DNA of 64,000 nucleotides from an uncultured Acidobacteriota bacterium (GCA_963805975.1 CAWDVR010000002.1:128001-192000), one strand, 5' to 3'; positions 1 to 29,461 are shown, numbered from the stretch's first letter. Translations and numbers: made by a program. Notes: generated by a model not told the origin, from the letters alone.

Positions 1-1
1 G

Positions 2-118
2 GACGGCACCTTCGAGCCGGTGAGCCCGGAAGGCCACGCCGCCCATCAGGGCGACGTCTTTCGCGTCGGGGAACGAGGGCCGTTCTTCCGCCTCACCTCG
101 CGCCGGGCAAGAGCGTGA
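2..118 (+). CDS. 3' end of an upstream gene (partial), probably another vWA-TM paralogue ending in an FHA-like tail
   Basis: Frame 2 reads DGTFEPVSPEGHAAHQGDVFRVGERGPFFRLTSRRARA* with TGA at 116-118 overlapping the next GTG (GTGA); resembles the tail of the 2418-4772 protein (DGGWEALPEEETSLRLGALYRNDLATLFFEVRHG). Confidence 0.6.
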   Translation, partial: DGTFEPVSPEGHAAHQGDVFRVGERGPFFRLTSRRARA

Positions 119-2421
119 AGACCTGGTGGCAGAGCCTTCGCCTCCTGGCGTGCTGCGCGGTGGCGGTCGCGGCCGGCCTGCCGGCGGCGGGCAGCCAGCA
201 CGTGCGGGTGGTGCTCGACACCTCCGGCTCGATGGCGACCAACGACCCGCCGCGCCTGACGATCCTCGCCACGCTCTTGCTCCACGACCTGGCCGATCTC
301 GGGCGCAATCTGGGTGACAGCTTCGAGGTGCTGCCCTTCGATCCGACGGCGGAGTGGCGGGACCCCGCCGCCGCGCCGCCGCTCGCGGTCGGCCCGCGGG
401 TGCGGGCGCGCTTCGGCGCCCGGGACGCGCTGGTCGCCGAGATTTCGTCTCTGCAGTACAACGCCCGCAACACCTACTTCTATCCTGGCCTCCGGGCGGC
501 CATCACCGATCTCGAGCAAGGCACCAGCCGTGACGTGCGCGCGCTGGTGCTGGTGACCGACGGCGTGCCGGTGGAGGCGACCCGCGAAGCGGAGCTCGCC
601 CTCATCCAGCGTGAGCTCCTGCCGCGTCTCCAGACGGGGGGCATCCGGCTCTACGTGCTGGCCTTCGGCCCCGAGGCCACGACCCACCGCGCTTTTTTCG
701 AGTCTCTGCTGGGCGGCCACGGGCAACGCGCTCCCGGCCAGCTGTTCGTCGATCGTGACGGCAGCGAGCTGCTGGCCACGATGAGCGAGATCTTCGCCCA
801 GGGCTTCGGCTACACTCGCTCCCATCCCCAGGCGCTCGCCGGCGGCTCCGATCTCGACCTCGAAGGCGGCGGCAAGGCCCAGCGCTCGGCCGTGGTGGTG
901 TCGTCGCCGCACGGAGGCGCGATCCCGAGCCTCAACCTCGTGCCACCGGCCGGCGGCAGCGTCAACGCTCCCGGGGGCGTCGTGGGCGCGGCCACCAACG
1001 GCGCGAGCTACGCGCTGACCTGGGCGCTCTCTCCCCATCCCGGGCGCTACCGCGCCAGCTCCAGTGCCGCCGCTGCTCGCGTCGTGGTGTTGCGCCCCAG
1101 CCGTCTGGCGCTCGAAGTGCAGAGCTCGACGCCGTCCACCCAGGCGCGACAGGTGATGGCCCGCACGCCGGTGCCCTGGCTGGTCGTGGCCCGGCCCGAG
1201 GGCGGCACGGGAGATCCCGGGCCGGTGAATATTTCATTTCGCACCCACGGGCCGCGCCGTACTCAGCCCGGGCCGGATGCGAGCCTCTACGAATGGTCGA
1301 GCGAGGCCGGCGCTCCGGCGGCAGGCTCTGACCAGTCATTGCCCGAAGGGCGGTCGTTTCCGGTCGAGGTGTCGTTTCCGCGCGACCCCCAGGAGGGAGA
1401 GGCCTCGTACCGCGGCTATCTCGAAGTCGAAGCCTGGCGGGGCGAGGCACGGGTCGGCGGCCTCACCGGCGAGAAGGCTTACCCGGTCGATGTCTTCCCG
1501 TTCCTGGACATCACGCCGTCACCGCTGGCCGGCGATGCGTTGCCGGCGGGCGACCGCAAGCGCCGGCCGCGGGCGCTGCGCAGCGGCGAGCGCGGCTGCG
1601 CCCTCTTTCATCTGCGCCTCACTTCCGGGCGCCTGCCTCATCTCAAGCAGCCGCGCTATTCGCTGCGGGCGACGCTCGACCGCTCGACCCAGGCGTTCCA
1701 AGGCGAGCTTGCCGGTGCCCTGGTGACGCTCGACGGCAAGTCCCTGGGGGTCGAAGGCCAAGCGAGCGCAGTCCCCTACCCCTGGCAGCTCGGCCAAGAG
1801 CTGAGCCAGGCCGACCTCCTGGGCGAGCACGCGATCTGTCTACAGGTGGGGCGGCCCAAAGCCGGCGACCCGGACAAGGCCCTGGAGCTGCCGCTTCGCC
1901 TGACCCTGCTCGAGAGCCCCTACGACAGCGCGCCGGTGATCGAGCCCTTCACGTTCCGGGTATGGATCAGCCCGCCGACTTTAGTCGAGCGCATCGGCCC
2001 CTGGCTCGGCCTGGCTTTCGCCGTGCTCTGCGGCGTGCTCGGCCTGGCGATCCTGCGCTGGCGATCCTCTTTGCCCCAGGACCTCGCTTACGCGCTGCAG
2101 CGCGACGAGCCGGGCGGTTCCTTGCCGCAGGCCACCTGGGCGGAGCTCACCTTCGAACGCCCGCCAGGGCTGGCGCGTTGGCTGGGGCTGGCGCCCGCCC
2201 TGCCGGTGCTGGCACTGGGCGAAGGCCGCCCGCTCGCCTGGGTGCGGCCGGCCAAGGTCGAGCTGTTCCATCTGCAACCGGCCGACGGAGTTCGGGTCGA
2301 GGACCCTACCGGCCAGGCGCTCGCCACGGCTCGCGGCGGCCGCTACACGCTCGAGGTCCACCGCGGCTACCGCCTGCTGGCCGGCGGCGAGCGCTACCTG
2401 CTGCGCCTGGAGTACCGGTGA
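115..2421 (+). CDS. Exported vWA-domain protein with a C-terminal TM helix and cytoplasmic beta-rich tail (768 aa)
   Basis: Signal-peptide-like N-terminus; MIDAS VVLDTSGSM, NTYF, LVLVTDG, LYVLAFG; TM segment WLGLAFAVLCGVLGLAILRWR. Confidence 0.85.
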   Translation: MKTWWQSLRLLACCAVAVAAGLPAAGSQHVRVVLDTSGSMATNDPPRLTILATLLLHDLADLGRNLGDSFEVLPFDPTAEWRDPAAAPPLAVGPRVRARFGARDALVAEISSLQYNARNTYFYPGLRAAITDLEQGTSRDVRALVLVTDGVPVEATREAELALIQRELLPRLQTGGIRLYVLAFGPEATTHRAFFESLLGGHGQRAPGQLFVDRDGSELLATMSEIFAQGFGYTRSHPQALAGGSDLDLEGGGKAQRSAVVVSSPHGGAIPSLNLVPPAGGSVNAPGGVVGAATNGASYALTWALSPHPGRYRASSSAAAARVVVLRPSRLALEVQSSTPSTQARQVMARTPVPWLVVARPEGGTGDPGPVNISFRTHGPRRTQPGPDASLYEWSSEAGAPAAGSDQSLPEGRSFPVEVSFPRDPQEGEASYRGYLEVEAWRGEARVGGLTGEKAYPVDVFPFLDITPSPLAGDALPAGDRKRRPRALRSGERGCALFHLRLTSGRLPHLKQPRYSLRATLDRSTQAFQGELAGALVTLDGKSLGVEGQASAVPYPWQLGQELSQADLLGEHAICLQVGRPKAGDPDKALELPLRLTLLESPYDSAPVIEPFTFRVWISPPTLVERIGPWLGLAFAVLCGVLGLAILRWRSSLPQDLAYALQRDEPGGSLPQATWAELTFERPPGLARWLGLAPALPVLALGEGRPLAWVRPAKVELFHLQPADGVRVEDPTGQALATARGGRYTLEVHRGYRLLAGGERYLLRLEYR

Positions 2422-4772
2422 GGGCTGCCACGACGGCCGCCGTGGCCGCTTTGCTCGCGGCGGGCGGGGCATGCCCGCTGCTCGCGGCCGGTGGCACGGG
2501 CCCCAAGAGCGTCGCTCTGGTGCTCGACACTTCGCGCTCGATGATCGAGAACGACCCGCAGCGCTACACCTCGGAGATCAGTCAGATCGTCTCCGACCTG
2601 CTGTCCGACGGCGACGAGCTCACCGTGGTGCGCATGCCCAAGGACGGTTTCTTCTACACCCCGGATTGCTCGGAAGGCGTCACGCCGGCCCTCGCCCGCA
2701 CCTCCGCCGGCGCGGATCGCCTCGGCTTCAAGCGCAGCCTCGACGCGCTGGTGCGCTACGACACCGGCACTTTCTTCGCCGCCCCCATCCGGACCGCGAT
2801 CGCCGCGCTACGCCGGCACCCCGACCGACCGCGCCTGTTGCTGGTCGTGGCGGATTCCGGCGGCCTCGGCGACTGCGAGACCGCGCTGACGAGAGAGCTC
2901 TCGGCCCTTGAGCGCGACGGCGCAACGCTCGCCGCCATCAACCTCGGCGGTGATGCGGGTGCCTTCGACCGCAATCCCGCTTTCGGGCTCACCGCCTCGG
3001 CGCGCGACGCCGAAGAGCTGATCGCCGCCGTGGCGCGGGTCTACCAGCGCTTTCTGGGCGGCCGGCAGGTGGCGACCGGCAACGCGCGCGGCAAAGTGCA
3101 GGTGGAGATCGCGCCGGCGGTCCGCGAAGCCTTCCTGGTCTTTGCCGCCGACGGCCCGCTGGGCGTGGTCTCCGAGGCCGCGGGCAATCCTGGCGCCCAC
3201 ACCGTCGATCTCGACTTTCGCGGCGGCGGCGGGGCTCAAGGCCTCGACGGCCGCCAGCGCGAGTACCGCATCGTTCGCCTCCAGCGGCCCAACGCCGGCC
3301 GCTGGACCTTCGAGGCCAGCGGGCTCACCTCCCAGGCCGGCTGGATGCTGATCCAGGACTCGGCGGTCGGAGTGCGCCTGGTCTCCTCGCCCACCGTGAC
3401 CGCCGGGATGGCGGCGACGATTGAGGCCCAGCTGGTGGACGAGGAGACCGGAGCGGCCATCACGGACTCCTCGTTTCTGCAAGGGCTGGGGATGACCGCG
3501 CAGATCGAAGGCCGCAACGTCACCCTGCGCGACGACGGCCAGGGCGGCGATCGGCTCGCCGGCGACGGGATCTTTTCCACCGCCGTCGAGATGAACCGGC
3601 TCGGGCAGCACGAGATCCCGGTGCACTTGGCGAGCTCGCTCCTCGATCGCGACCGCACTCTCGGGCTCGAAGTCGCGGCCAGCAGCTGGGAGCTGCGGGT
3701 GAGCTCTCCCGCTGTCGCCGAAGCCGGCAGCCCGGTCGAGCTGGCGGTCGAAACCGTGCCGATCGGCCGAGCCGAAGCTCTCAAGGCTCCGGAGCGGATC
3801 GACGTGACCGCCGCCGGCCAGGTGGTTCAGCTGACCAGCAGCCCGGCCCGGAAGGGCCTCTATACCGGGTCCTGGGTACCGGCCGAGCCGGGCACCGTGA
3901 CGCTCGAGTACCAGCCGGTCGGCGGCTCCGCGGCCCTGCCGGTCAGCGCCACCATGACCGTCAACAGCGTCTTGAAACTGGGCCCGGCCCAGCCCGTCAC
4001 GCTCGTGCCGGTGCAGGCGCACGGGGAGGCCACGGGCGAGCTCGCGCTCGCCCGTGCGACCGTACACGGCACCTTCGTGCTCGAAGCCAGCAGCGACTTC
4101 GCTCGCCGGCGCGCCCTGCTGGAGATCGATCCGGGCAGCGGCTGGGTCGCTCTGGGCGCGACGCCGGTGCCGCTCGAACTCGGCTCCGGCCGCCCGGCGA
4201 TCTGGCGCCTGCGGCTGCGCGCCGCGGCCTGCCCCGAGCCGGCGAGCGCCGGCGACCCCTTCGTCATCCACCTCGTGCAGCGGGGCGGCAGCGCCCGGCT
4301 CTCGATCCCGCTCGCGGTGGTGATCGAGCCCGAGCCGTGGTGGATCTGCTGGTGGCCCGTGCTGGCGCTGGCGCTGGCAGGCCTGGCGGCGGCGGTGGTG
4401 ATCCACGGCTTCGTCTCACCGTCTCGTTTCGCGCCACGCCTGGGCGTCCTGCTGTCGCCGGAGCTCGACCTGGGAGAAGGCTTCTTCCATCCCATCCGCG
4501 GCACTCGCGGCAGCGGCAGCGGTTTTTACCGTGACGCCACGGTCTTCGTCTGCGGCGACTACCGGCTGTCGGGTCGGACCGACGGCGCCGTGGCGCGGCT
4601 GCGGGCCGACGGTCGCGGCGTGCGCATCCGCACCGTGCCAGGAGCCACCCTGCTGCGCCAGAACGCCGACGGCGGCTGGGAGGCGTTGCCGGAGGAAGAA
4701 ACCAGCCTGCGGCTGGGCGCGCTCTACCGCAACGATCTCGCCACTCTCTTCTTCGAGGTTCGCCATGGCTGA
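2418..4772 (+). CDS. Exported vWA-domain protein with a CLCA/choice-of-anchor-X-like DDG motif, TM helix and cytoplasmic tail (about 784 aa)
   Basis: GTG at 2418 overlaps the upstream TGA; LVLDTSRSM, GTFF, LVVADSG; LRDDGQGGDRLAGDGIFS; TM segment WWPVLALALAGLAAAVVIHGF. Confidence 0.85.
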   Translation: MRAATTAAVAALLAAGGACPLLAAGGTGPKSVALVLDTSRSMIENDPQRYTSEISQIVSDLLSDGDELTVVRMPKDGFFYTPDCSEGVTPALARTSAGADRLGFKRSLDALVRYDTGTFFAAPIRTAIAALRRHPDRPRLLLVVADSGGLGDCETALTRELSALERDGATLAAINLGGDAGAFDRNPAFGLTASARDAEELIAAVARVYQRFLGGRQVATGNARGKVQVEIAPAVREAFLVFAADGPLGVVSEAAGNPGAHTVDLDFRGGGGAQGLDGRQREYRIVRLQRPNAGRWTFEASGLTSQAGWMLIQDSAVGVRLVSSPTVTAGMAATIEAQLVDEETGAAITDSSFLQGLGMTAQIEGRNVTLRDDGQGGDRLAGDGIFSTAVEMNRLGQHEIPVHLASSLLDRDRTLGLEVAASSWELRVSSPAVAEAGSPVELAVETVPIGRAEALKAPERIDVTAAGQVVQLTSSPARKGLYTGSWVPAEPGTVTLEYQPVGGSAALPVSATMTVNSVLKLGPAQPVTLVPVQAHGEATGELALARATVHGTFVLEASSDFARRRALLEIDPGSGWVALGATPVPLELGSGRPAIWRLRLRAAACPEPASAGDPFVIHLVQRGGSARLSIPLAVVIEPEPWWICWWPVLALALAGLAAAVVIHGFVSPSRFAPRLGVLLSPELDLGEGFFHPIRGTRGSGSGFYRDATVFVCGDYRLSGRTDGAVARLRADGRGVRIRTVPGATLLRQNADGGWEALPEEETSLRLGALYRNDLATLFFEVRHG

Positions 4773-4789
4773 CCGTCAAGGAGCTCACC

Positions 4790-7700
4790 ATGTCTGAGGA
4801 ATACCGCGCTGGACAGAGCACCATCACGCCAACCCTTGTCGTGGGCCTGGGTGGCACCGGCTCCGACATCGTCGACCGCATCGCCGGCCGCGCCGCCACC
4901 CTGCCCAACTGGGAAAGCCAGCTGCGCCCCTTGACCTCGTTCGTGGCCATCGACACCAACGAGCTCGATCAGCACGGCCTCGCTCACATCCCCGACGGCA
5001 ACCGCTTGAACATCGCCGCCTTCGACAAGGCGCGCGTGATCGATCACTTCCGCCGCTCGCAGAACCAGCAGGCCCTGCAATGGCTGGACCGCGCCTATCA
5101 ACCCCGCCCCGGCTTCAAGCCGGGCGCCGGCCAGATCCGCGTCGAATCGCGCCTGGGCTTCTTCTTCCATTCGCCGGAGATCCGCCAGCGCCTGCGCTCG
5201 CTGGTGCGCGAAACCCTCCGGCCCGGCATCGTGTGGCGCCAGGCCACGCCTCCGAAGTACAACGTCTACGTTTTCACGACGCTGGCCGGCGGCACCGGCT
5301 CGGGCTGCTTTCTCTCCGCCGCGTATCTGATCGAGGCGGTGATCCGCGAGCAGGAGTGGCAGCCGCGGATCGTCGCCAACCTGCTCTTGTCCACCTTGAT
5401 GCAGGACAAGGTCGGCCCCGAGCTCCACCCCGACATCCACGCCAATACCTATGCCGCCTTGAAGGAACTCGAGCACCTGACCAAGCTCGACTACCCGCAG
5501 GTGCGGCGCGAAGGCCGCACCGCGGAGGACTTCGTCTACTGCCGCGACGAGACTTCGCAGCAGATCCTCCAGGTCGGGAGCCGGCCGTTCTTCCTGAGCT
5601 TCCTGTTCGATCGCCCGTCGCATCTCGGCCTGCCCGAGGCCAAGCACGCCATCGCCGATGCCGCGTTCCTACAGATCTTCACGCCGATCATCGACAACCT
5701 GGCCGGCGAGCTCGACAACTACGAGAAGCACCTCGAGTCGCTCACCCTGTTCCCGGGCGAGCTCAAAAACGTCGGTCTGGGCTACACCAAGAACTTCGGC
5801 GCCTTCGGGGCGGTCGCCCTGGCGCTGCCCGGCCGCGACCTGCTCGAGTACTGCGCCCTGCGCTTCGCCGCCCAGGCGATGCGCAGCCAGATCACCTTCG
5901 GGGTCGACCCGAACGATCCGACCGACGATCGCGCCCGCGCCCTGGCACGCCTGGCGGTCAACTACGCGGACCCCAAGTTCCTCAACCTGGCGGACGCCGA
6001 GCGGGAGCGCGAGATCAACCGCGCCTTCGTCGCCTCGGTGCAGGAGATGGCACGCCAGGACGCGGTCGACGACATGACGCGTGGCTTCTGGTATCAGCTC
6101 GTCGCGAGCATCGACGAGGGGCCGCTCACCGGCACCGACCCGGACGGCAAGCCGATCCACGGGGAGTCGCTGGTCGCCGTGGTCGAGCGCCAGCTCGACG
6201 AGGCCCGCCGGCCGCTGCTCAACAAGGTCTCGATCAAGGAGCGCGCCTTTGCTTTTCACAAAGAGGGCGTGAGCCAGTACAACGAGCTGGTGAGCCGCCT
6301 GAAGGAAGACATCCGCAATGCCCGGGTGATCGTCGACGAAGGCTGCCGGGGCCTGGTGGCGAGCGCCGAGGAGGGCGAGGTGATCGCCGGGCTGAAGCTC
6401 GACCCGATCGCCGAGCGCTACCTCGCGCTGCGCAAGCTGGCGCATCTCGAAACCGAAGTCTTGCCCAAGGCGGAGCAGGAGCTGAGCAGCGCTCAAGTGC
6501 TGGAGCTCAACAACCCTGCGGTGCAGAAGCGCTTCGAGGAGCTGTACCAGAAGCTGCAAGACGAGGCGCGCGCGCGGCGCTGGCCCAATCGCGATCAGAG
6601 CTTTCTCGACGCCCGCAGCGAAGCCGAGGAGTACTACGGCAAGGTTGCGAAAGCGGCGCGCCGCATCCTCGACCTCGAAGTGCGCCTCCGGCAGCTGCGC
6701 GCGCTCACCGACTATCTGCGGCGCCGGGCCCGGCAGTATGCCCGCCTGGCCAACCGCATGAACGGCCTGGTGCAGGACCTGGAAGCCGACGCCGAGCGGC
6801 TGCGCCGGGGCGAGGTGGCGATCGAGCTGCCGCTGGCGCTCAAGGTGGAAGTCTTCGAAACCTTGGACGAGCCGCGGCGCCGCATCTGGGACCGCGTCTA
6901 CAACGCCCTGTTCCTCGACGGCGGCCGCTACCTCGCCACCTTCGATCGCCAGCTGCTGGCCGAAACCGTGGCGCGCGAGCTCAAGCCGGTCGTCGGCGCC
7001 GACGGCCGGGTGAGTGACAAGACCGTCGACCAGACCGTCACCGACCTGCGCCGCGCGCTCTGCCGACTCGGCCGCGAACGGCTGCGGCCGGCGATCCTGG
7101 GCGATGCGGACGCCACCGGGCTCGACCTCGAAACCGGCCTGGCGCTCGAGGCGCGCTTGATGCTGGCGCCGATGAAACGCCCGGGCGAAACCGTGACGCC
7201 GGAGGAGATCGAGGAGTACCGCGAGAAGAAGTTCCGCGCCCTGGCGCAGCTCGCCGGCGTGCTCGCCCGGGTGAGCGCGGCGGATGCCAAGGCGCTCGAC
7301 GACGGGGTCAAGACCAACCGCACCCGGCAGCTGATCCTGGGGCACTCCGGCGCGCGCGCCGAGTCGGTCGACGGCCGCTTCGTCGATCGCCTGAAGAGTG
7401 TGCTCTCTGCCGGCGGCCACCAGGTCGAGAAGGACTACTGGCACAACCCGCGGCTCGCCATCGTGCACGACGTCGAGCTGCCGATCCCGCTGTACTACTT
7501 CCAGCCAGTGGTGGGCGAGATCGAAGAGGCGTATTTGAAGATCGCCGCCGAGGAGCGCCGCGGCTACAACCTGCACACCGACTTCAACTGGGAAAAGTCG
7601 CTGCCCAACCTGAACCCGCGGCGCTCGGAGCTGACGGTGGGCTGGTCGCTCAGCCAGCTGGCCGAGGGCCTGGTGAGCCGCATCATCCTCTTCCGCGACG

Positions 7701-8080
7701 GTCGCTGGCAGTGGCAGGGGGAGCGCGACGGCAAGGCCGAGATCCTCGGGCCCACGCTGTCGAGCGCCCTCTACCGGATGGGCGAGATCCATCGCTTCGA
7801 GGACCTGCAGCGGGAGTTCGAGCGGCAGGTGCGCCAGGCCCGCGCGGCCCTGCCGGCGGAAGAGCTGTCGGTCCGGCGCCAGCAGCTGGCGCAGCGGATC
7901 GAGGGCTTGGTCGCGGACATGTCGCGGCGCGAGCTCAACGGCGAGATGAGCCGTGAAGACATCCTCGACCGGCCGATCCTGCGCACCCTGATGCTCTACC
8001 TACCCACCGGCCATGCCCACGACGATCGCACTGTCTCGGCCAGCGCCGGCTACAGCCAGCTCACCGAGGAAGGAGCCTGA
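4790..8080 (+). CDS. Tubulin/FtsZ-like (Tubulin_2, FtsZl-type) GTPase with a long helical C-terminal region (1096 aa)
   Basis: AAGGAG RBS; LVVGLGGTG, AIDTN, GAGQIR, TLAGGTGSG signature, ANTYAALKEL. Confidence 0.9.
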   Translation: MSEEYRAGQSTITPTLVVGLGGTGSDIVDRIAGRAATLPNWESQLRPLTSFVAIDTNELDQHGLAHIPDGNRLNIAAFDKARVIDHFRRSQNQQALQWLDRAYQPRPGFKPGAGQIRVESRLGFFFHSPEIRQRLRSLVRETLRPGIVWRQATPPKYNVYVFTTLAGGTGSGCFLSAAYLIEAVIREQEWQPRIVANLLLSTLMQDKVGPELHPDIHANTYAALKELEHLTKLDYPQVRREGRTAEDFVYCRDETSQQILQVGSRPFFLSFLFDRPSHLGLPEAKHAIADAAFLQIFTPIIDNLAGELDNYEKHLESLTLFPGELKNVGLGYTKNFGAFGAVALALPGRDLLEYCALRFAAQAMRSQITFGVDPNDPTDDRARALARLAVNYADPKFLNLADAEREREINRAFVASVQEMARQDAVDDMTRGFWYQLVASIDEGPLTGTDPDGKPIHGESLVAVVERQLDEARRPLLNKVSIKERAFAFHKEGVSQYNELVSRLKEDIRNARVIVDEGCRGLVASAEEGEVIAGLKLDPIAERYLALRKLAHLETEVLPKAEQELSSAQVLELNNPAVQKRFEELYQKLQDEARARRWPNRDQSFLDARSEAEEYYGKVAKAARRILDLEVRLRQLRALTDYLRRRARQYARLANRMNGLVQDLEADAERLRRGEVAIELPLALKVEVFETLDEPRRRIWDRVYNALFLDGGRYLATFDRQLLAETVARELKPVVGADGRVSDKTVDQTVTDLRRALCRLGRERLRPAILGDADATGLDLETGLALEARLMLAPMKRPGETVTPEEIEEYREKKFRALAQLAGVLARVSAADAKALDDGVKTNRTRQLILGHSGARAESVDGRFVDRLKSVLSAGGHQVEKDYWHNPRLAIVHDVELPIPLYYFQPVVGEIEEAYLKIAAEERRGYNLHTDFNWEKSLPNLNPRRSELTVGWSLSQLAEGLVSRIILFRDGRWQWQGERDGKAEILGPTLSSALYRMGEIHRFEDLQREFERQVRQARAALPAEELSVRRQQLAQRIEGLVADMSRRELNGEMSREDILDRPILRTLMLYLPTGHAHDDRTVSASAGYSQLTEEGA

Positions 8081-8084
8081 AGCG

Positions 8085-13420: not shown

Positions 13421-13436
13421 GGAACCGAGGCCCCTC

Positions 13437-15365: not shown

Positions 15366-16138
15366 TGTCTAGTGACTTAGGAACACCCCGGCAGATCTGC
15401 CTGTGGGGGCCGGTGAGCGCGGGCAAGACGGCGCTGCTCGCTCAGCTCGTCCACGCCGCACCGCTCGCCACGGATTCCTGGGAGGTGCTGCCTGCGGCCG
15501 AGGCGCAGGATTTCGTCGAGTCGACCCGGCATCGCATGCGCGAGCAGAATCGTTTTCCCGCGGCCACCACCGCCGGCGGCGGTCTGGCGCTGGCCTTTCA
15601 CTTTCGCCACCGGCGCCTGGGCAGCACCGCGACGCTGGCGGTCGAGGATCGGGCGGGCGACGATTCGCAAGCCTTCACGCCGCTCGGCGAGACGATCACC
15701 CGGGCGGAAGGCCTGGTGATGCTGCTCGACTCGACCTACGAGCCGGCGGTCCTCGAGGGTTTCCTGCTCCGCACGCTCGAGCGGCTCTCTTACGCCCGCG
15801 GTGCGCACTCCGGCCGCGATCCGCGACCGATCGCGGTCTGCCTCTCGAAGGCCGATCTCTACATCCAAACACCGGACGACCTGGCGAGCGCGAGCGCCGA
15901 GCCCGATGCCTTCGTGCGGCGGCGGCTCGACGAGCGCTGCCTGGCACCGCTCGCCACCTACTGCGAACGCTTCCAGCTCTTCCCGGTGTCGGCGATCGGC
16001 CTGCGCCTGCGCTGGGGGGCGATCGAACCGGTGGTGTTCGTGGATGAATCCGGCACCGAGCGCCTGTGCCCCCACACCACGCCGCTCAATCTCCTGGCCC
16101 CGTTTACCTGGGTGCTCGACCAATTGCAGGAGGCCTGA
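15365..16138 (+). CDS. TRAFAC-class P-loop GTPase, double-GTPase type (about 257 aa)
   Basis: G1 GPVSAGKT, G2 PAATT, G3 DRAG, G4 SKAD, G5 VSA; C-terminal PLNLLAPFTWVL. Confidence 0.85.
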   Translation: MSSDLGTPRQICLWGPVSAGKTALLAQLVHAAPLATDSWEVLPAAEAQDFVESTRHRMREQNRFPAATTAGGGLALAFHFRHRRLGSTATLAVEDRAGDDSQAFTPLGETITRAEGLVMLLDSTYEPAVLEGFLLRTLERLSYARGAHSGRDPRPIAVCLSKADLYIQTPDDLASASAEPDAFVRRRLDERCLAPLATYCERFQLFPVSAIGLRLRWGAIEPVVFVDESGTERLCPHTTPLNLLAPFTWVLDQLQEA

Positions 16139-17622
16139 TGGCAAGCGCGCTTTCCTGGCCGGCATTCAGCGGTATTCAAGGCCGCTCGTGGCAGCTGCCG
16201 CAGGAGCTCCGCGTCCGGCGTGGCATCTGGGGAAAAGTGCATGGCGCGCGCACCGATTTTCGCTGGATCGCCCAAAGCTCCGGCTTCGGTCATGGTGCAC
16301 AGCCGCTGGAAAAGCTCTTCTGGATGGGGCTCGAAGAGCAACCCACTCGCGCCGCCTTCTGGCGGGCGACCCCGGCTCGGTGGCTGGCGATCTCGGCCTA
16401 CCCCAGTCGCGCGGTGGATTGGAACGGGCGGCGGGGTTTCTGCGAGCGGCAGGTCCTCGAGTGGACGCCCGACCCCACCACCGAAACCCTGCCGGCGGCA
16501 GCCGCGGCACTCCTGCTGCTGCCTCGGGCCGAGACCTTCGACGACAGCCTGTGGTGGGATCAGGCGCTGCAACTCGCGGACTCCCCGGATCTCGTGCTGC
16601 CGCTGGTGGAAGATCGATCTCTGTACGTCCAGGTCGACGAGATCGCCCTTGCGGACGCGGTTCGACGGGGGCTCGACGAGCTGCGCAGCAGCGCTGCCGA
16701 CGGCGAGCTGCTGCCCGGTCTCGCGGCGCTCTACACGGCCCTTCGCGCCGGCCAGCAACCGGCTCTGCTGAGCGGGCTGCTCCAACCTCTTTCGGGGGTC
16801 GCTCTCGCCACCCTACTGTTGCTCCTGCCGCGCGAGCAGGCCGACCGCCTGTCGCTGGCCGGATGGCTCTTCGCCCACGGCGTGGCACCCTCGCGCCTGG
16901 CGGACAACTGGGACGTGGTCGCCCTGCCGCCACCGGCAGGAGAGCGTTCCATCACGCCCGACGACGAGGGCCTGCGCATGGCCGAGGCCCTGCTCGCGGG
17001 CGAGCCGCCGGGCGAGCTCGTCCCGCTCCCTCGCGCACCCAGGGCGAGCGCAGCCGTGACGAGCTCGTCACCCATCCAGTCCTGGATATCCCAGCCCCAG
17101 GCGCCACAGCCTTCAGAGCCCCCAGAAGAAGCTCGGCCGCTCGCCGCCCCCGGCCCGGAGGCGCCGGCGGTACTGCACGAGATCTTCCGGTTCGCCAGCG
17201 CCGGCAATCGCCGCTGGCTCGCGCCGGAAGCGATCGCACAGGTCTATCGGCAGCAAGCTCGCGGCGGTGCGCTCGCACCGGCCGACCGCGAGCTGCTCTG
17301 CGGCTGGATCGCTCAGCTCGCGACCCACCGCCCCCCTCACGCCGACGCGGACCAATGGCTGACGAAGGTGGACCTGCTGCGCGCGCTCGCCCTCGCCCTG
17401 GCGCCGTCTCCCGAAATCCTGGACCGTCTCGGAAGCTTCGCCAGTCAGCGGGTGCCGCCGCTGCTCTACGCCCCGATCTTCCAGGCCGGCCCGGAGATGC
17501 TGCGCGACCGCTTGGGCGATGCGGCTTTCCGCGCCGTTGCGAAAGAAAGCCGGGGTTGCCACTCGCCGCGCTGGCGACAGTGGGTCGAAGAATGGCTGGC
17601 GCCGCCCTCCGACGGCTTGTAG
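16138..17622 (+). CDS. GTPase-associated protein, GAP1-N-like (about 494 aa)
   Basis: TGATG coupling to the GTPase; WGKVHGARTDFRWIAQSSGF and VDWNGRRG motifs; Pro-rich linker then a helical domain. Confidence 0.6.
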   Translation: MASALSWPAFSGIQGRSWQLPQELRVRRGIWGKVHGARTDFRWIAQSSGFGHGAQPLEKLFWMGLEEQPTRAAFWRATPARWLAISAYPSRAVDWNGRRGFCERQVLEWTPDPTTETLPAAAAALLLLPRAETFDDSLWWDQALQLADSPDLVLPLVEDRSLYVQVDEIALADAVRRGLDELRSSAADGELLPGLAALYTALRAGQQPALLSGLLQPLSGVALATLLLLLPREQADRLSLAGWLFAHGVAPSRLADNWDVVALPPPAGERSITPDDEGLRMAEALLAGEPPGELVPLPRAPRASAAVTSSSPIQSWISQPQAPQPSEPPEEARPLAAPGPEAPAVLHEIFRFASAGNRRWLAPEAIAQVYRQQARGGALAPADRELLCGWIAQLATHRPPHADADQWLTKVDLLRALALALAPSPEILDRLGSFASQRVPPLLYAPIFQAGPEMLRDRLGDAAFRAVAKESRGCHSPRWRQWVEEWLAPPSDGL

Positions 17623-17655
17623 CGACTTCGTGCTCACCACCTGCAACCCGTAGGC

Positions 17656-18759
17656 TTAGGGGCCAGGCGGTGAGCTCGCTTCGGCGATGACGCTCTCCGC
17701 CACGCCATAGCAACACCCAAACCCCAGCAGGCGCGGTACTCGCTGGATCGCCTGCGCCGCACGGCTCGGTTGGAAGCCGGCCAGCTCGAAGGCGAGCTCT
17801 GGCACGCTGGCCAGCGTCACATACTGGCGCCGGGCGAACTCCGGCAGATGCTGGCGGCGGTTCCAGTTCGGGTCGGCGGCAAACCCGGGATCGTGAAAGA
17901 TCGTCGCCACCAGCGCGCCCATCGCGTGGAGCTTGCCGAGCGGCCCCTCGATCTCCTGGGCGCGCGGCAGGAAGTCCGCTCCCTCCGGCGCCGGGTCGGC
18001 GAGCGAGTGGCCGGGTGAATCACCGAGCATCACGATGATGCGCTGCGTCTGCTCGGGCAGCGGCAGCTCCGCGCACACCGCCAGCGCGTCCGCGAGCGCA
18101 TCGACAAAATCGCCCCCGGAGGTCGGCGGCACCGCGGCGAGCCGCGCGGGCAGCTCGGCCCACGAAAACAACGGCAGCCGGAGCCCTTCGGCCCCCGTGG
18201 GCCAAAGCTTGTAGCGCGGTTGCAAGTCCGGCGCATCGAGCATGGACAGCTTCTCGTCGCCAAACGCGAGCACGCCCAGGCGTGCCTTCCGGTCGGTGCC
18301 GAGCTCGCGCGCCAGCTCCACCAACCGCTCGACGACCTTGGGCCAGCGATCGCTTGCCACGAGCTGCGGCCGCGGGCCGTCTGTGCCACCACGGGCGGTG
18401 CCGTCGATCACGAAGATCAGCTCCAGCTCCGCGGCTTCCGGCTCGCGGCGGGCCGGCGCAAGGGGCGCGAAGCGCTCGTCCGGCGGCAGCACGAACAGCG
18501 CGCGGTTCTCACTCCAGGCGTGCAGCTCGCCCGCGGCGTCGAGCTCGAGATGAAGGCTGATCTTCTCCTCTTCCGTCGCCGGCACCTCGAAACGCCAGCG
18601 GATCGCGTCGTGTGCGGCGCACGCGAGATGGAGACCCTGCGCACCGGGCAACGAGCGCAGGCGCAGCCGGCACCGCCGCTGCTCGGCGGTGAAGGGCAGC
18701 GGAAGAGACTCGATACGGCCGGTCGTCGAATCGATCGCCTGGAAAGACCAGGGAATCAC
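17656..18759 (-). CDS. Cytoplasmic vWA-domain protein with a degenerate MIDAS (367 aa)
   Basis: GTGA overlap; LIFVIDGT, GVLAFGD, GGDFVDALADAL, IIVMLGDSPGH. Confidence 0.8.
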   Translation of the reverse strand: MIPWSFQAIDSTTGRIESLPLPFTAEQRRCRLRLRSLPGAQGLHLACAAHDAIRWRFEVPATEEEKISLHLELDAAGELHAWSENRALFVLPPDERFAPLAPARREPEAAELELIFVIDGTARGGTDGPRPQLVASDRWPKVVERLVELARELGTDRKARLGVLAFGDEKLSMLDAPDLQPRYKLWPTGAEGLRLPLFSWAELPARLAAVPPTSGGDFVDALADALAVCAELPLPEQTQRIIVMLGDSPGHSLADPAPEGADFLPRAQEIEGPLGKLHAMGALVATIFHDPGFAADPNWNRRQHLPEFARRQYVTLASVPELAFELAGFQPSRAAQAIQRVPRLLGFGCCYGVAESVIAEASSPPGP

Positions 18760-21365
18760 GGCTTGTCTCCCGAGCCGGAGCCGCCCTCTTTCTCGCCGGC
18801 CTTCTGCGGCGGGCGCGTTGACACATTGCTCGGGCGATGGTCCGGGATGTGCTCGAGCTTTTCCTCGATAGCCGCGAGCCGCCTCCCGTTCTGGTCGACG
18901 AAGCTTTGGAGCGACGGCGCCAGGGTGCGCGCCGCAAAGGCGAGGCTGGCGGCGAGCAGCAGCACGGCCAGCAGGCGGCCGGCGGGCACCGGCCGGAGCA
19001 AGTAGCGGCCCGCCCGCTCGGTATGCGTCGAAGCGGAGCCGGAACCTGCCGGCGCCACTCTGCCGGAGGTCGGAAAGATGTGCTCTTCGACGACGGAGAG
19101 CCGGTAGTCGAGGCTCGGCCGCGTGATGGTTTCGAGAATCAGCGCCGAGAGCTCGCGGGGCAGGCCGCCGAGAGACACCACGAGCTTGCCGAGGAGGTCC
19201 TCCGCCTCGGGGTCGACCGGGATCACGAGATGCTGCCCAGGAGCCAACAGGAGGCGCTCATTCTGCAAGGGCCGCCAGACCGGCGCACCTCCAGACGGCG
19301 CCAGGAGCAGATAACGCGCCGCTCGAGAGGCCGTCGAAGAGAAGAGCGCGATCTCGACCGGTAGCTCGGGGGGCGGCTCGGAGGGCGCGGTCACCATCAG
19401 CCCGCCGCCGGCATTGCGAAGCTGGGTTTCGAGATCTCCCAGCGTGGGCGGGTTGCGGCGGCGGCCTTTCAAAAAAGACCACCACGGCTCGGCGCCGGGC
19501 GTCTGGCGGCTCCAGACCAATACCTGGGCCGGCCGGCCGTCGAGCTGGGCGTCGATGCGCCGCGGCTCGGGAGTTTCCTCTTGGCGTGGATAGAAGAATG
19601 TGACGCGCTCGTGCATGGGCAGGGCCTCCCTGCGAAAAGATGAAGAGCCGAGGAGCTGGCCCAAGGAACTCTTGCGGCGCAGCACATCGGCCAGCCGCCG
19701 TGTTTCGTCGGACCCCAGAAAGCGACGCTGCCGCCAGAGCCCCGCGAGAGCCACGGAGGCGCGCTCGGCAGGCACACTCTGGGGCGCGCTCGCGTTGCGT
19801 TGCTCGATGGCTTCGACGCGGTCGTTCCAGGCCGACAGGTCGCCCCCCGGGGAAAAGGCGCCGGTGGCTCGAGGGCGCGAGCTCTCCGCCCGAAGCTTCT
19901 CGTCGCGACCGGAGCTCGGCGCCGCGGCCGGCGGTCGCGCCGCGGCCAGCGCGGGCAGCCAGCCCAGGAGCTGGCTCTCGAGCGGGCCCTCTGCCAGGCC
20001 AGCGAGGCTGGCGTCTCGAGCCGCCTTCTGATGAAGCTCCTTCTGAGGGGCCAGGCCGACCGTGAGCCGGCACAACTGTTCGAGTTGGAGGAGCTCGAAC
20101 GGCGGCGCGAGAGGCCAGGCCCGCCGGCCTTGCGGCCAGAGCTCGGCGATGTCTCGCTGCGAGAGCCCGCCGGGCTCGAGGTCCTTGAGAACCCGCTTCC
20201 AGTCCTCCAGCAGCACTTCGGGCGCATCGGCAGCCTGCCAGCAGGGAGAGATGAGCCAGGCGAGTGCCGCCGAGTGCAACGCTGCGGTTCCGAGCGCGGT
20301 CTGCGTGCGCCACCACGACCACCATCGAGAGGTGATCAGATCGCTCACCGTCGCTGACGGCGCCGTGCCGATGTCCCGGTCGAAATCGGCGGCGGCCCGG
20401 CGCCATTCGGCCTCGCCGCTCGGATCACCGCGTTGCTCCAGGCGCGCCATCCGGATCGCCATCAAATGCTGCCGCGCGGGCAAGGAGCCGCCCTTCGGCG
20501 CATGACGCTCGACGAACGGCAAGAGCGCCTCCGGGTTGGTCAGAGCGAGCTCGACGGCAGCCGCGGCATAGCTCTGAACCTCGGTCGACAGGCGGGGCCC
20601 GGATCGCAGCACTCCGTCTCGATCCAGCAGCAAGGCCTCGCGGGCATGCGACAGCGCTTGGACGGCCACTTCTTCCGGGACCACCAGCAAGTTGGCCCCT
20701 TGGCGCAGGAACGCCGCCGGCTGGCGGGTGAAGATCCGGATCCTGGCCGTGGCCCGCAGCAGCGGCGGCAGCGCGGCGCGCGCGAAACCGGCCAGGCTCG
20801 GGATCGGGCCACCGGTCACGAAGGTCGCCATCGGAACTGCCACCAGCAGAGAGCGGCGCGTGGCGAGAGCGGCGTAGAGGCTCGCCAGCCAGCGCGTTGC
20901 GACCTCGGGCTCGGCGGCGATCGCCTCGGCCCAACGCGGAGCTGGCGGCGACGGTATCCGGACTTCTTCGCGCCGGCCCTCCGACCAGGGTTGCTCGAAG
21001 GCCTCGGAACGGCCCAGGAGAAAACCGGGGTCTGGCGAAACGGGCAGCGCCCGGGCATGGGCGAAGTAAGCCGGCCGGCGATCGAAGACCCCAGCCGCGC
21101 ACAGGCGAACGACCCAGGTAAAGCCGTGGGTGACGAGGCAGGACCACGCTTCCAGGTCCTTGCCCAACAGGCGATGGTCGGACGTCACGGCGTCGAGCGT
21201 CATCCAATCGCGCAGTGTCTCGAGCAGCTCGGTGTCGTCCGCCAGCGGCCCCTCCGCAGCCAAATACTGCTCTCCGTCAGCGACCGGGCGGCCCGGCCCC
21301 TCGCCGATCCCATGTCGGGATTGACCGCGAAAGAGCGCTAACGACCGAGGCTCGTTCATCGCCAT
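18756..21365 (-). CDS. Large GAP1-N-like GTPase-associated protein with a C-terminal TM helix (about 869 aa)
   Basis: ATG 5 nt after the GTPase stop; GVFDRRPAYFAHARAL motif; TM segment LLAVLLLAASLAFAA near the C-terminus. Confidence 0.6.
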   Translation of the reverse strand: MAMNEPRSLALFRGQSRHGIGEGPGRPVADGEQYLAAEGPLADDTELLETLRDWMTLDAVTSDHRLLGKDLEAWSCLVTHGFTWVVRLCAAGVFDRRPAYFAHARALPVSPDPGFLLGRSEAFEQPWSEGRREEVRIPSPPAPRWAEAIAAEPEVATRWLASLYAALATRRSLLVAVPMATFVTGGPIPSLAGFARAALPPLLRATARIRIFTRQPAAFLRQGANLLVVPEEVAVQALSHAREALLLDRDGVLRSGPRLSTEVQSYAAAAVELALTNPEALLPFVERHAPKGGSLPARQHLMAIRMARLEQRGDPSGEAEWRRAAADFDRDIGTAPSATVSDLITSRWWSWWRTQTALGTAALHSAALAWLISPCWQAADAPEVLLEDWKRVLKDLEPGGLSQRDIAELWPQGRRAWPLAPPFELLQLEQLCRLTVGLAPQKELHQKAARDASLAGLAEGPLESQLLGWLPALAAARPPAAAPSSGRDEKLRAESSRPRATGAFSPGGDLSAWNDRVEAIEQRNASAPQSVPAERASVALAGLWRQRRFLGSDETRRLADVLRRKSSLGQLLGSSSFRREALPMHERVTFFYPRQEETPEPRRIDAQLDGRPAQVLVWSRQTPGAEPWWSFLKGRRRNPPTLGDLETQLRNAGGGLMVTAPSEPPPELPVEIALFSSTASRAARYLLLAPSGGAPVWRPLQNERLLLAPGQHLVIPVDPEAEDLLGKLVVSLGGLPRELSALILETITRPSLDYRLSVVEEHIFPTSGRVAPAGSGSASTHTERAGRYLLRPVPAGRLLAVLLLAASLAFAARTLAPSLQSFVDQNGRRLAAIEEKLEHIPDHRPSNVSTRPPQKAGEKEGGSGSGDKP

Positions 21366-21370
21366 GACGT

Positions 21371-22468
21371 TTACATCAGGGCGTTGGTGGACGCGCACAG
21401 GGTCAGCAGCAGCGGCAGCTCGACGTGGGCCGGCACGGGCGGACCGATCGCTCGACGGCGGGAAGCCGGCAGCACGGCCCCCTCGAACTCGTTGATCCGT
21501 GCTCCTTCGACCGCCGAGAGCGGGATCAGCCAGGGCCGGCCATGACCGAGGTCGAGCTTCGATGGGATGGCGGCCACGAAGGGGTCGCTCGCGGCCGCGA
21601 AGCGCTGCCCCAAGAGCTCGGAAAGCTGGCGGGCATTTTCCAGGTAGCGGGCGAGCCCGCGCGCCGACCGCAGCTCGCGCAGGTAGGTTTCCGGCGCGGT
21701 GAGGTACGGCAGGATCCAGCGCTCGCGCAGCTCCGGCAGGCCACCCCGCACGTCGTCCGCCATCGTCAGAGCGACGATGCTCTCCACCGGCTGGGTGCGA
21801 CGGTGGCGATGGCGCAGCTCGAGGATGTTCTGCACCACCTGCTCGAAGCGCACCAGCCGGTTCTCGCGCTCTTCCCAGTCGAGGTCGCTGAGCTCGGCCG
21901 ACGGGAAGGCGATCCACAAAGGCAGGCAGAAAATCAGCACGCGCGCGTCGAGGATGCCGGCGCCCCAAAGGTCCTGGTTGGAGCCGTCCGGCACCATCTC
22001 GAAGAAGCCTTCACCGGAGCCGTCGAAGAAGTCGACATCGATCGCGCCCCGCCGGCGCCCGAGGAGGCCGAGGCGGTACGACAGCCGCAGCCGATACCAG
22101 CATTGCGTCAGCAGAGCGGTTTGCGCCAGACGCTCCCAGGACGTGAAGTCCTGCAAGAAACGCGGGATGTTGAGCGCTTCCGGTTGGTCACGACGATCCT
22201 GGGCGCGCCAGAGGCGGCTCGCGTCCTGCTCCAGAAAATAGGTGAGCGCGCCGGATTGCGCGCCGGCGTAGGTGCGATAGACCATCGCCTGAAAGAGGTA
22301 GCTCTTGCCGACTCCCTTGCCGCCGACAATGCCGACCTTGAAGGTGTCCTCGCGGGCGAAGCTCTCGTGATCGGGCTCGGCAGCCGGGCTCGATGGTGGT
22401 AACTCCCTCGAGTCTTCCTCGACGAGGTCCGGGCTCGGTGCGGGATCGTCATCGTTTCTCGGGCTCAC
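21371..22468 (-). CDS. TRAFAC-class P-loop GTPase, second double-GTPase type (about 365 aa)
   Basis: GGGGAG RBS plus GTG at 22468; G1 GGKGVGKS, G3 FFDGSG, variant G4 LTMAD, G5 LSA; C-terminal PAHVELPLLLTL. Confidence 0.85.
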   Translation of the reverse strand: MSPRNDDDPAPSPDLVEEDSRELPPSSPAAEPDHESFAREDTFKVGIVGGKGVGKSYLFQAMVYRTYAGAQSGALTYFLEQDASRLWRAQDRRDQPEALNIPRFLQDFTSWERLAQTALLTQCWYRLRLSYRLGLLGRRRGAIDVDFFDGSGEGFFEMVPDGSNQDLWGAGILDARVLIFCLPLWIAFPSAELSDLDWEERENRLVRFEQVVQNILELRHRHRRTQPVESIVALTMADDVRGGLPELRERWILPYLTAPETYLRELRSARGLARYLENARQLSELLGQRFAAASDPFVAAIPSKLDLGHGRPWLIPLSAVEGARINEFEGAVLPASRRRAIGPPVPAHVELPLLLTLCASTNALM

Positions 22469-22478
22469 AGGATCTCCC

Positions 22479-24122
22479 CTATTCCCAGAAGGCTCGGACC
22501 TCGATCGCGTCGCGCTGGGCAAAATGCTTGATAGAGCTCGAATGCACGCGCAGGCGGTAGCGCCCCGCGATGAGCCGGAAACCCTTCATCGCCGTACCGC
22601 TGCGGTCCGCGGCCAGCTGCAGCGTGGGGTGGGCGCGCTCGACGGCGCGCGCGAAGGGTTCCATGACGGCGGCTTGATAGCTTTCCGTGCTGGCCGACGA
22701 GGGCTCGGGGAAGAGGAGATAGACCTCGTCCGGCAGCTCGCGGTCGAAGTCGAGGAGGGGGCTCGCGGACTTGTACACGAGGCGCGCGTCGATCAGCAGC
22801 TCGGCACCTTTCCCCAAGGGATTCCGGGCATAGGCGAAGCAATCGATCCGCAGATAGTTCTGGCCGTCCTCGGAGTAGCGGTGCCGGAGGCAGCCGGGCT
22901 GGGCCCCCATCGACCAGGCGGCGCGGGCGGTCACATCCATCAAGGCCCGCAGATCCACGGGGCAATAGGCACGGTAGCTCGACTTGAACACGGGCTGATC
23001 GAGCAGCTCGGCAAGCTCCGGGCCTCGCCCCTGCGGCATCGCCCAGCCATCGGTCCAACTGTTCCGCATGGCGGAGTGGCGCCGCTGCCAGCGTTCCCTC
23101 TCGGCCTCGAAGAGCTGTCTCGTCTCGGCGCCGCCGGCTTCGGGACGAAGCTCGCCTAGCAGGCGAGCCAACTCGTAGTAGTAACGATCGACCGTGCGAC
23201 TGCGCGTCGCGAAGCGCGGGTCTTGAACCCAGGCCGACCGTTCCCGGTCGAACCAGATCGCTGGCCAACCCAATTGCCCCAAGCTGGGAGCCCGCTCGGA
23301 CGAAAGAGCCTTGCCGGCCGTTCGTATGGCGTTCCGCGCCGCGGCCGCCAGCTCCGCGTCCCGTCCCAGGGTCGCGGCGGCGGCCCACAGCTGCCGATGC
23401 CGCATGAAGCGCACGGGGTGATACGTCGCCAGCGCTGCGAGCCGGGCTTCCACCTCTTTCCAACTCTCCTCGGAGGCCTCCGGCCGCGGCTTGGCGGCGA
23501 GCTCGGCATCTCGGGCCATCGCTTCGAGCCCGTGGACGGCCCGATCGATCGCCGACTGCCAGAAGAGATCCGAGGCTCGTGCGGCGAGAGGCAAGCCGAT
23601 CGTCAGGAAGAGCGCTATCGAGATCATCGCCACGAGCACGATCCACTCCGTCCCGCGACGGATCGCGGCCGGCCGCGCCAAGCGCAGCGACAGCACCAGG
23701 GAGCTCGCCATCGATGCGACCGCCCAGGCTTGCAGCAAGGGGGCGTTCGCCCAGGCGGATCCCCACGAGAGCAGCAGAAGCAGGAGGCCCGTGCTGGCGG
23801 CCAAAAAGAGCGGCCACAGGCGCGGGAAGAGGCGTCCAGGCCGCTCTCTCCCGGCCCAGGCCACGCTCAGGGCGAGGACCGCCGCCGAGCCGGCCAGCAG
23901 CCCGGCGGGCACGGGCGCCCGAAACAGGACTCGCAGCTCCCGAGTCGACGACAGCACCAGGAGGGTCGCGGCGAAGATGGCCAGCGACAACCACGTGAGC
24001 GCTCGCGCGGGCAACGACCACAACCAGAGCCGGCCGAGCCCCAACGCTTGGGTCGGCAGAGGAACTGCCCCGGCGAGCTCAGGCCTCGGCATGCTGCAGG
24101 TCTCCATGTGCCACGGTCGCAC
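22479..24122 (-). CDS. Multi-pass membrane protein with a large soluble C-terminal domain; start uncertain (24092-24122)
   Basis: 4-5 hydrophobic segments in the N-terminal third; stop 10 nt before the GTPase start. Confidence 0.7.
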   Translation of the reverse strand: MRPWHMETCSMPRPELAGAVPLPTQALGLGRLWLWSLPARALTWLSLAIFAATLLVLSSTRELRVLFRAPVPAGLLAGSAAVLALSVAWAGRERPGRLFPRLWPLFLAASTGLLLLLLSWGSAWANAPLLQAWAVASMASSLVLSLRLARPAAIRRGTEWIVLVAMISIALFLTIGLPLAARASDLFWQSAIDRAVHGLEAMARDAELAAKPRPEASEESWKEVEARLAALATYHPVRFMRHRQLWAAAATLGRDAELAAAARNAIRTAGKALSSERAPSLGQLGWPAIWFDRERSAWVQDPRFATRSRTVDRYYYELARLLGELRPEAGGAETRQLFEAERERWQRRHSAMRNSWTDGWAMPQGRGPELAELLDQPVFKSSYRAYCPVDLRALMDVTARAAWSMGAQPGCLRHRYSEDGQNYLRIDCFAYARNPLGKGAELLIDARLVYKSASPLLDFDRELPDEVYLLFPEPSSASTESYQAAVMEPFARAVERAHPTLQLAADRSGTAMKGFRLIAGRYRLRVHSSSIKHFAQRDAIEVRAFWE

Positions 24123-24233
24123 CGGATAGACACTGCGGAGCCTGCTTTGTTGCCATGGAGCTACCGCAGAGCGGGATCGGACCTGCTCCGCGGTGACGTG
24201 CTAGTAGGGCGAGTTACGGAAAGCTGCGAGGCG

Positions 24234-24255
24234 CCGGCTCGCGAAAGCGAGCCGG
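24234..24255. other. Perfect 9-bp hairpin with a GAAA tetraloop
   Basis: CCGGCTCGC-GAAA-GCGAGCCGG. Confidence 0.6.
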
Positions 24256-24378
24256 TCCCGATTCTCACGTCGTCAGAGCACGATGGCGGCCCAGGCCGGC
24301 TGCCCGGAGGCATGTCAGCATCGATGGCCGAGCGAGCTTGGCAGCGGGGGTTCAATGGACACGGTGGCGCCTCATGCT

Positions 24379-29426: not shown

Positions 29427-29461
29427 CGCAATGACGGAGCCGGTCGCCGCGGAGCCGGCCC

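Follow-up and report, generated by a model that had tools for sequence, protein, structure and literature searches.

An FtsZl1-vWA-GTPase cassette with a predicted membrane pseudo-tubulin in an uncultured Acidobacteriota bacterium

Positions 1-24122 of a 64,000-nucleotide stretch of an uncultured Acidobacteriota genome (GCA_963805975.1 CAWDVR010000002.1:128001-192000, hereafter the window) hold 13 genes that are inherited as one cassette, encoding vWA proteins, a tubulin of the FtsZl1 family, a predicted pseudo-tubulin, a membrane pseudo-helicase, and two GTPases with GAP1-like partners. In agreement with the link to FtsZl1 and double-GTPase loci drawn in the preliminary description of this DNA, the cassette is a variant of two published computational predictions rather than an unrelated system: the operons of FtsZl1 (Pfam Tubulin_2, PF13809), vWA, and GTPase genes predicted by Makarova and Koonin in 2010 (PMC2875224), and the DO-GTPase/GAP1-N2/tubulin/vWA loci for which Kaur et al. 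in 2020 (PMC7159879) predicted a role in conflict. FtsZl1 systems have been predicted since 2010, and their kind is so far known only from genome comparison; no experimental study of them was found in the literature searched, outside which most subscription papers fall. The subtype described here shows which subunits are live and which are dead. With a probability of roughly 45%, the cassette encodes an inner-membrane machine in which vWA receptors trigger GTP-driven assembly of FtsZl1 on a dead twin, under the control of two GTPase switches, as a conflict (probably defense) response.

A thirteen-gene cassette inherited as one system

Nine of the genes lie on the plus strand, the first being the 3' end of vWA0, and four on the minus strand; the two blocks converge with 33 bases between them (Table 1). 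Among the 11 same-strand junctions, six overlap (GTGA three times, TGATG twice, ATGA once) and the other five are gaps of 4 to 17 bases, in agreement with the at least 13 genes with mostly overlapping junctions that had been described; the genes are translationally coupled. Two exported vWA genes with a transmembrane helix (TM), a type named in the earlier inventory, lie in the window, and a third, vWA0, starts about 2 kb upstream, with only its last 118 bases inside. The GC content of the cassette (0.68-0.73) is genome-like. A Pfam scan of its proteins returned Tubulin_2 (E 3.6e-45), the MrfA Zn-binding domain MZB (1.5e-8), and DO-GTPase2 (8.7e-7), and its VWA matches were weak and below the cut-off.

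Neighborhoods were compared in 10 other genomes, namely the seven of 400 genomes of the class with a near-full-length tubulin match and three of 301 Methylococcales genomes. Both blocks are convergent, as in the window, in six of the 10 (G401, G404, G834, G886, G1054, and G1100) and form a single same-strand run in G405; in G402, G403, and G933 the cassette is cut by contig ends. G401 yielded no GAP1b match, and the G1100 cassette is split over two contigs inside the tubulin gene. The pseudo-tubulin gene follows the tubulin gene in six of six metagenome loci, two of which apparently come from the same organism as G405, and gene order is kept in both Thermoanaerobaculia and Methylococcales. That other genomes, from two phyla, have the same order shows that the 13-gene arrangement is not due to chance. 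That the two convergent blocks are independent systems adjoining by accident could be argued from their opposite strands and from GTPases and GAP1 domains that profiles do not align, but the blocks are adjacent in 7/7 genomes whose contigs allow this to be judged, with two arrangements and two phyla represented, and GTPase 2 is present in 5/5 tubulin-bearing genomes tested, so that this explanation is largely refuted and very improbable.

The distribution of the cassette is patchy. The pseudo-helicase was found in none of seven genomes of its own family (92-98% complete), in one of 40 relatives, and in 7 of 124 genomes of the G834 family (one of the seven unpublished), and among 401 genomes of the phylum a full-length tubulin occurred in the window's own genome alone; absences in these counts mean "not found," many of the genomes being incomplete. 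No paralogs of cassette genes were found elsewhere in the genome. The search for an empty site in the same genus was cut off by a contig end close to the flanking transporter, and none of five relatives yielded the FHA-trypsin gene. The window copy is streamlined: GTPase 1 lacks a fused GAP1a paralog, and GAP1b, its fused membrane protein, and the coiled-coil protein are shortened.

Components and their relation to published systems

The tubulin is the most conserved component of the cassette. It scores 155 bits against a Tubulin_2 cut-off of 27, contains no TM, and carries the T4 motif GGTG[SA]G, which is present in 120 of 120 sequences, bearing out its earlier reading as an FtsZ/tubulin-like GTPase. 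At least 203 relatives were found, the best 119 of them at 56-75% identity; those named come from Thermoanaerobaculia, Competibacteraceae, Methylovulum, and "Ca. Kentron," identity across phyla is 60-68%, and the cultured species Methylovulum psychrotolerans has an ortholog at 64%. With its motifs intact, the protein is an FtsZl1/Tubulin_2 member predicted to polymerize in a GTP-dependent manner. Other Tubulin_2 subtypes are common in the class, being present in G1132 and 38 further genomes (45 of the 400 have a Tubulin_2 match of any kind); G1132 has two copies 6 kb apart (C9:196365-203094). Nine stretches with distant Tubulin_2 loci from five genomes gave no match to 10 cassette profiles. 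In G404, a second tubulin copy broken by a stop and frameshifts (C143:28582-31512) lies upstream of the block of the TM protein and GTPase 2, facing the intact copy, which suggests duplication or rearrangement.

The protein encoded next to it had been described as a membrane pseudo-tubulin, and a structural model agrees. Pfam and profile searches gave no sequence-level match, and a profile comparison with the tubulin, made with shallow alignments, was not significant (best probability 9.9%). A model built from 17 sequences (pLDDT 81.7) matches the tubulin fold with a Z score of 18.5 and a root mean square deviation (rmsd) of 4.4 over 293 aligned residues spanning model positions 2-813, the structures matched being tubulins, BtubA/B, CetZ, and an Asgard tubulin (Z of ~18, ~290 residues aligned); Foldseek alone gave E values of 2e-3 or weaker. 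The T4 loop is present in 0 of the 17 sequences and a T1-type GxGxxG in all 17. The protein is predicted to consist of an N-terminal GTPase domain, a helical stalk of about 450 residues bearing a membrane hairpin of two helices (476-494 and 521-539), and last strands that close the fold, a split deduced from the model range, the aligned length, and the secondary structure. The model thus depicts a probable dead twin of the tubulin. A likeness of the stalk to alpha-pore-forming toxins was rejected, the Foldseek matches having an rmsd of >30. In the available part of PMC2875224, no tubulin C-terminal domain was reported for FtsZl1; the split fold modeled for the pseudo-tubulin offers a structural reason why this domain may have been missed in FtsZl1, in that the far C terminus may close the fold.

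The profile of the putative membrane pseudo-helicase matches YprA (PDB 6ZNP) at the motif II region and the MZB domain (E 2.7e-9) and finds 122 cluster representatives at an E value of 1e-30 or better. In an alignment of 64 full-length homologs of 880-1010 amino acids (fragments and distant long matches left out), neither the Walker A GK[ST] nor the DE pair occurs in any sequence (0/64 each); motif I mostly reads xPDxCGQxE, and WW stands where DE is expected. The protein aligns with the MrfA/YprA (Hrq1-like, DUF1998) helicases and retains the winged-helix/MZB region, but unlike them it has five N-terminal TMs and lacks both catalytic signatures, as the earlier label had it. Roughly 30% of the homologs lack three of the four zinc cysteines (kept in 43-48/64). 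Distant relatives (P0240-P0278) reach about 1400 amino acids and suggest more subtypes with fused domains. The next gene encodes a probable coiled-coil protein with no family match that is 642 amino acids long here versus about 770 in relatives, at 24-29% identity.

The three vWA receptors each have a hydrophobic N terminus, one TM, and a cytoplasmic tail, and the DxSxS of the MIDAS motif is kept in 12/12 (vWA0), 11/11 (vWA1), and 12/13 (vWA2) sequences. vWA0 and vWA2 have homologous, well-conserved tails. With no outer-membrane component found in the cassette, models and hydropathy predict a periplasmic location for the vWA domains and a machine that spans the inner membrane only; the "trans-envelope" machine with "surface" vWA sensors of the preliminary description goes beyond these data. 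An FHA-like fold for the tails was rejected, since PDB profile, Pfam, and profile comparisons with 13 FHA domains of the genome did no better than controls. Receptor genes differ in number and length among loci, with an extra vWA2, a 1218-amino-acid form with repeated domains, and an extra vWA0 (L019:1791-8004, L024:68-4588, L032:14196-16388), as expected of sensors under diversification. The further vWA protein of the earlier account, vWA3, retains that label on its motif pattern: DxSxS is present in 0/11 sequences, and family and PDB sequence searches gave no match. An Hsp70-like N terminus of vWA3, suggested by its pattern, was dropped after a PDB search without a match.

Of the two pairs of GTPase and GAP1-N-like protein described earlier, GTPase 1 stands on its Pfam match. 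It passes the DO-GTPase2 cut-off (29.3 versus 27 bits), as do three of three scanned orthologs, has intact G1, G3, and G4 motifs, and is fused behind a GAP1a paralog in 6 of 10 related loci. GTPase 2 has its motifs but no Pfam DO-GTPase or other family match (six of six scanned), so only GTPase 1 is formally placed as a DO-GTPase. GAP1a and GAP1b matched no Pfam GAP1 hidden Markov model among 15 proteins scanned, and GAP1-C was not detected; their language-model features score 0.93-0.95 to clusters containing GAP1-N2 (36-86% of members) and GAP1-M. The labels of GTPase 2, GAP1a, and GAP1b thus derive from motifs, language-model features, and one model. Profile comparisons of GAP1a with GAP1b and of GTPase 1 with GTPase 2, with shallow alignments, were not significant. 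The single GAP1b gene of the window, about half the usual length and in frame with a truncated membrane protein, corresponds to two separate genes in seven of the eight genomes where it was found.

A model of GAP1a residues 1-280 (pLDDT 83.8) has as its best match TagF, a repressor of type VI secretion (T6SS; PDB 9T0N, 6IZ8), with an E value of 3e-5, a Z score of 7.5, and an rmsd of 4.8 over 222 residues, followed by longin domains, DENND1A/1B/10 over both the longin and the central DENN lobes (Z of 5.5-6.1, 205-218 residues aligned), FLCN, and GATOR1. A wide structure search gave 13 rows at a Z score of ≥5, all of them TagF or proteins of the longin/DENN family. A longin-DENN/TagF fold is predicted for GAP1a, the Z scores being moderate. 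G32, K33, D40, S90, D94, and R98 are invariant (16/16) and mirror the TagF residues G-K, D-F, and S-D-R, matched by pattern with spacing changes of one and two residues; the loop that joins strands four and five contains R98. GAP1b has an invariant G23-P24 after its first predicted strand and an invariant R97, and an Asp and an Arg are invariant in the GAP1 proteins in 16/16 and 8/8 sequences. By loop position, the GAP1a arginine may correspond to the eukaryotic arginine finger.

TagF requires G-K and S-D-R to bind Fha, and PMC5995506, in its available text, names no GTPase partner (0 occurrences), whereas GAP1a has a GTPase encoded beside it. The eukaryotic longin-DENN regulators, comprising the guanine nucleotide exchange factors (GEFs) DENND1A/B and the GTPase-activating proteins (GAPs) FLCN, NPRL2, and SMCR8 (PMC3521125 and PMC12290439, available text), match GAP1a over two lobes in the case of DENND1A/1B/10 (205-218 residues, rmsd 5.0-5.5, identity 7-8%) and share with it an invariant arginine in a longin loop; they act on Rab, Arf, and Rag, whereas the partner of GAP1a is a DO-GTPase. 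In eukaryotic longin GAPs, the longin domain contains both a G-P motif and an arginine finger (PMC12290439, available text). A role as GAP or brake is favored for the GAP1 proteins over GEF or adaptor, with activity on the cognate GTPase as a prediction, and R98 of GAP1a and R97 of GAP1b are single residues by which a GAP and a TagF-type adaptor can be told apart. Should GAP1 act on its GTPase, bacteria would own a working longin-DENN-like switch, of relevance to how eukaryotic trafficking regulators arose; the longin-DENN fusion has been placed in the eukaryotic stem in the available text of PMC3521125. No paper tying GAP1 to DENN or TagF was found in the literature searched, again largely outside subscription journals.

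As far as the available text of PMC2875224 describes them, the FtsZl1-vWA operons share with the cassette an FtsZl1 N-terminal GTPase domain with a coiled coil, exported or membrane vWA proteins with intact MIDAS, a diverged GTPase with a TxKD-type motif, and many unnamed membrane proteins; unlike them, the cassette has no OmpA-like gene. The pseudo-tubulin and pseudo-helicase are not named in that text, and its supplements gave 0 matches for helicase, DUF1998, Acidobacter, and Methylo. With the systems of Kaur et al., as given in the available text of PMC7159879, the cassette has in common two GTPases, GAP1-N2/M-like partners downstream or fused, a tubulin with a coiled coil, several vWA proteins, and TM components. 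That text limits the tubulin theme to firmicutes and actinobacteria, whereas the hosts here are Acidobacteriota and Gammaproteobacteria; two GAP1 genes and the membrane pseudo-helicase are further differences, and no FNIII protein or zinc ribbons were detected in the cassette. DENN, longin, TagF, DUF1998, and acidobacteria are absent from its main text, as available.

Proposed function and alternatives

In the proposed conflict machine, Mg-dependent ligand binding by the three MIDAS-intact receptors would be signaled through their conserved cytoplasmic tails. The pseudo-tubulin would anchor, nucleate, or cap the tubulin filament, because its fold is kept and its GTP loop lost, and the pseudo-helicase may serve as a scaffold or an ATP-independent nucleic acid clamp. 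Each GAP1 protein would keep the cognate GTPase switched off, acting either as a TagF-like brake or as a GAP with an arginine finger, and so set a threshold. Since scans found no domain of a nuclease, toxin, or peptidase, the output would be mechanical, in the form of membrane deformation, containment, or leak. Patchiness, neighboring insertion sequence (IS) elements, and the prediction of Kaur et al. (PMC7159879, available text) favor a conflict role. Several observations weigh against it. Family scans of the cassette turned up neither an effector, whether hypervariable or enzymatic, nor an FNIII protein (no Pfam or NCBIfam match, although the receptors' beta-sandwich domains could be diverged equivalents), and the variable parts (the coiled-coil protein, the GAP1b C terminus, and the TM protein) have no family match. 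PADLOC recognized no family beyond one weak match, to DruE over the shared MZB domain. No defense-island neighbors were seen, the flanks consisting of CHAT/caspase, kinase, and transport genes, and the high conservation of the core is uncharacteristic of an arms-race effector. In a quick tubulin tree each label needs two changes and well-supported branches force only one, so that horizontal transfer and its direction are not established. The DENN and TagF Z scores of GAP1a lie under the tool's caution level of 8, in a range it describes as common, at an rmsd of about 5, and its arginine need not be catalytic, because it is also part of the Fha-binding surface of TagF (PMC5995506, available text). 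The window copy, shortened in four genes, might be degenerate.

The lack of an effector and of defense neighbors keeps non-defensive remodeling close behind defense. Here the same machine would shape vesicles or tubes or serve cell-cell or surface adhesion, with GTPase/longin-DENN pairs marking the assembly site in the manner of MglA/MglB or Rab/DENN; this is possible although not the preferred reading. It was the original proposal for FtsZl1-vWA operons (PMC2875224, available text), and it suits the head, stalk, and membrane tip of the pseudo-tubulin model, the longin/DENN likeness, and the strong core conservation, whereas the very patchy presence in close relatives does not suit a morphological role across the lineage, even if patchiness would be conceivable for an optional organelle. 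A more far-reaching proposal, rather doubtful in its entirety, is an integrin-to-cytoskeleton machine, in which MIDAS receptors would act on a heteropolymer of active and dead tubulin, a dynamin-like membrane stalk would split the tubulin fold, each of two small GTPases would have a true longin-DENN arginine-finger regulator, and GAP1, TagF, and eukaryotic DENN/FLCN/NPRL2 would form one lineage. If so, the two-lobed DENN module predates eukaryotes and already times bacterial membrane remodeling.

It is unlikely that the cassette is a contact-dependent attack or secretion apparatus shut by a TagF-like posttranslational brake, with FHA, kinase, and PP2C as the release switch. The best structural match of GAP1a and its retained G-K, D-F, and S-D-R point that way, as do the kinase, two FHA proteins, and PP2C encoded divergently from vWA0 in this genome, but those genes were not found beside the cassette in the 10 other genomes (distant kinase matches only), the receptor tails have no FHA similarity, and no outer-membrane channel, substrate, or toxin was found; nor were T6SS genes among the cassette neighbors scanned. 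Tubulins of the TubZ type move DNA. A device for DNA uptake, transfer, or anchoring, in which the pseudo-helicase would hold on to single-stranded DNA while the tubulin transports it, would accord with the MrfA/YprA ancestry and the retained winged-helix/MZB region; it is quite improbable, given the loss of zinc cysteines described above and the lack of an ATPase motor, relaxase, pilin, or ComEC-like channel.

Gene list and flanking genes

Table 1. Cassette genes by ascending position in the window
Gene	Position	Strand	Length (amino acids)	Description
vWA0 (3' end)	1..118	+		vWA with MIDAS intact, signal peptide, beta-sandwich domains, single TM, cytoplasmic tail (conserved); VWA E 2.3e-6; choice-of-anchor X
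vWA1	115..2421	+	768	Exported vWA, single TM, cytoplasmic tail; VWA_2 match under the cut-off (E 0.0013)
vWA2	2418..4772	+	784	Exported vWA, beta-sandwich domains, one TM, vWA0-homologous tail
Tubulin	4790..8080	+	1096	FtsZl1/Tubulin_2 GTPase, soluble, long coiled coil; Pfam, T4 motif
Pseudo-tubulin	8085..10526	+	813	Model: tubulin fold with inserted helical stalk and two-helix membrane hairpin; T4 loop lost
Pseudo-helicase	10523..13420	+	965	SF2 body of the MrfA/YprA type with motifs I and II dead, MZB zinc domain, five TMs at the N terminus
Coiled-coil protein	13437..15365	+	642	Helical, probably coiled coil, fast evolving
GTPase 1	15365..16138	+		DO-GTPase family, G1/G3/G4 intact
GAP1a	16138..17622	+	494	GAP1-N2/M-like, predicted longin and DENN-like lobes, TagF signature residues
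vWA3	17656..18759	-	367	Cytoplasmic vWA-like, altered MIDAS, N-terminal beta region
GAP1b	18756..21365	-	869	GAP1-N2/M-like N terminus, in-frame fusion to truncated single-TM protein
GTPase 2	21371..22468	-		Intact P-loop, DxxGE-type G3, atypical G4 (TMxD); likely start 22468
Five-TM protein	22479..24122	-	~547	Large, probably periplasmic C-terminal domain, two invariant cysteines

Upstream of the window (L001:12209-16879) lies an operon encoding PP2C, a zinc-ribbon-FHA protein, an FHA-TM-trypsin protein, and a Ser/Thr kinase, divergent from vWA0 across a short shared intergenic region and followed by genes for a Gly-zipper lipoprotein, two TPR-CHAT proteins, and a caspase. The operon could regulate the cassette in this genome; it and the CHAT genes were rejected as cassette members, not being conserved as immediate neighbors in the comparison genomes, and the genome contains about 19 CHAT and 31 kinase matches overall. 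In the G834 family (L039, L042, L045, L051), vWA0 is preceded on its own strand by a TPR-CHAT gene, another exported vWA-like gene, and a membrane gene, which are possibly a family-specific extension.

On the other side, two IS remnants (DDE_Tnp_1/DUF772 and DUF4096) that appear frameshifted or nested occupy positions 24161-26297, directly upstream of the five-TM gene. They are followed by a run of glycosyltransferase, sodium:solute symporter, and flavin halogenase-like genes (26381-30772) and, at 30798-61083, by genes for seven PQQ_2/BamB-type beta-propeller proteins, two TonB-dependent receptors, a radical SAM protein, and an aldehyde dehydrogenase-like protein.

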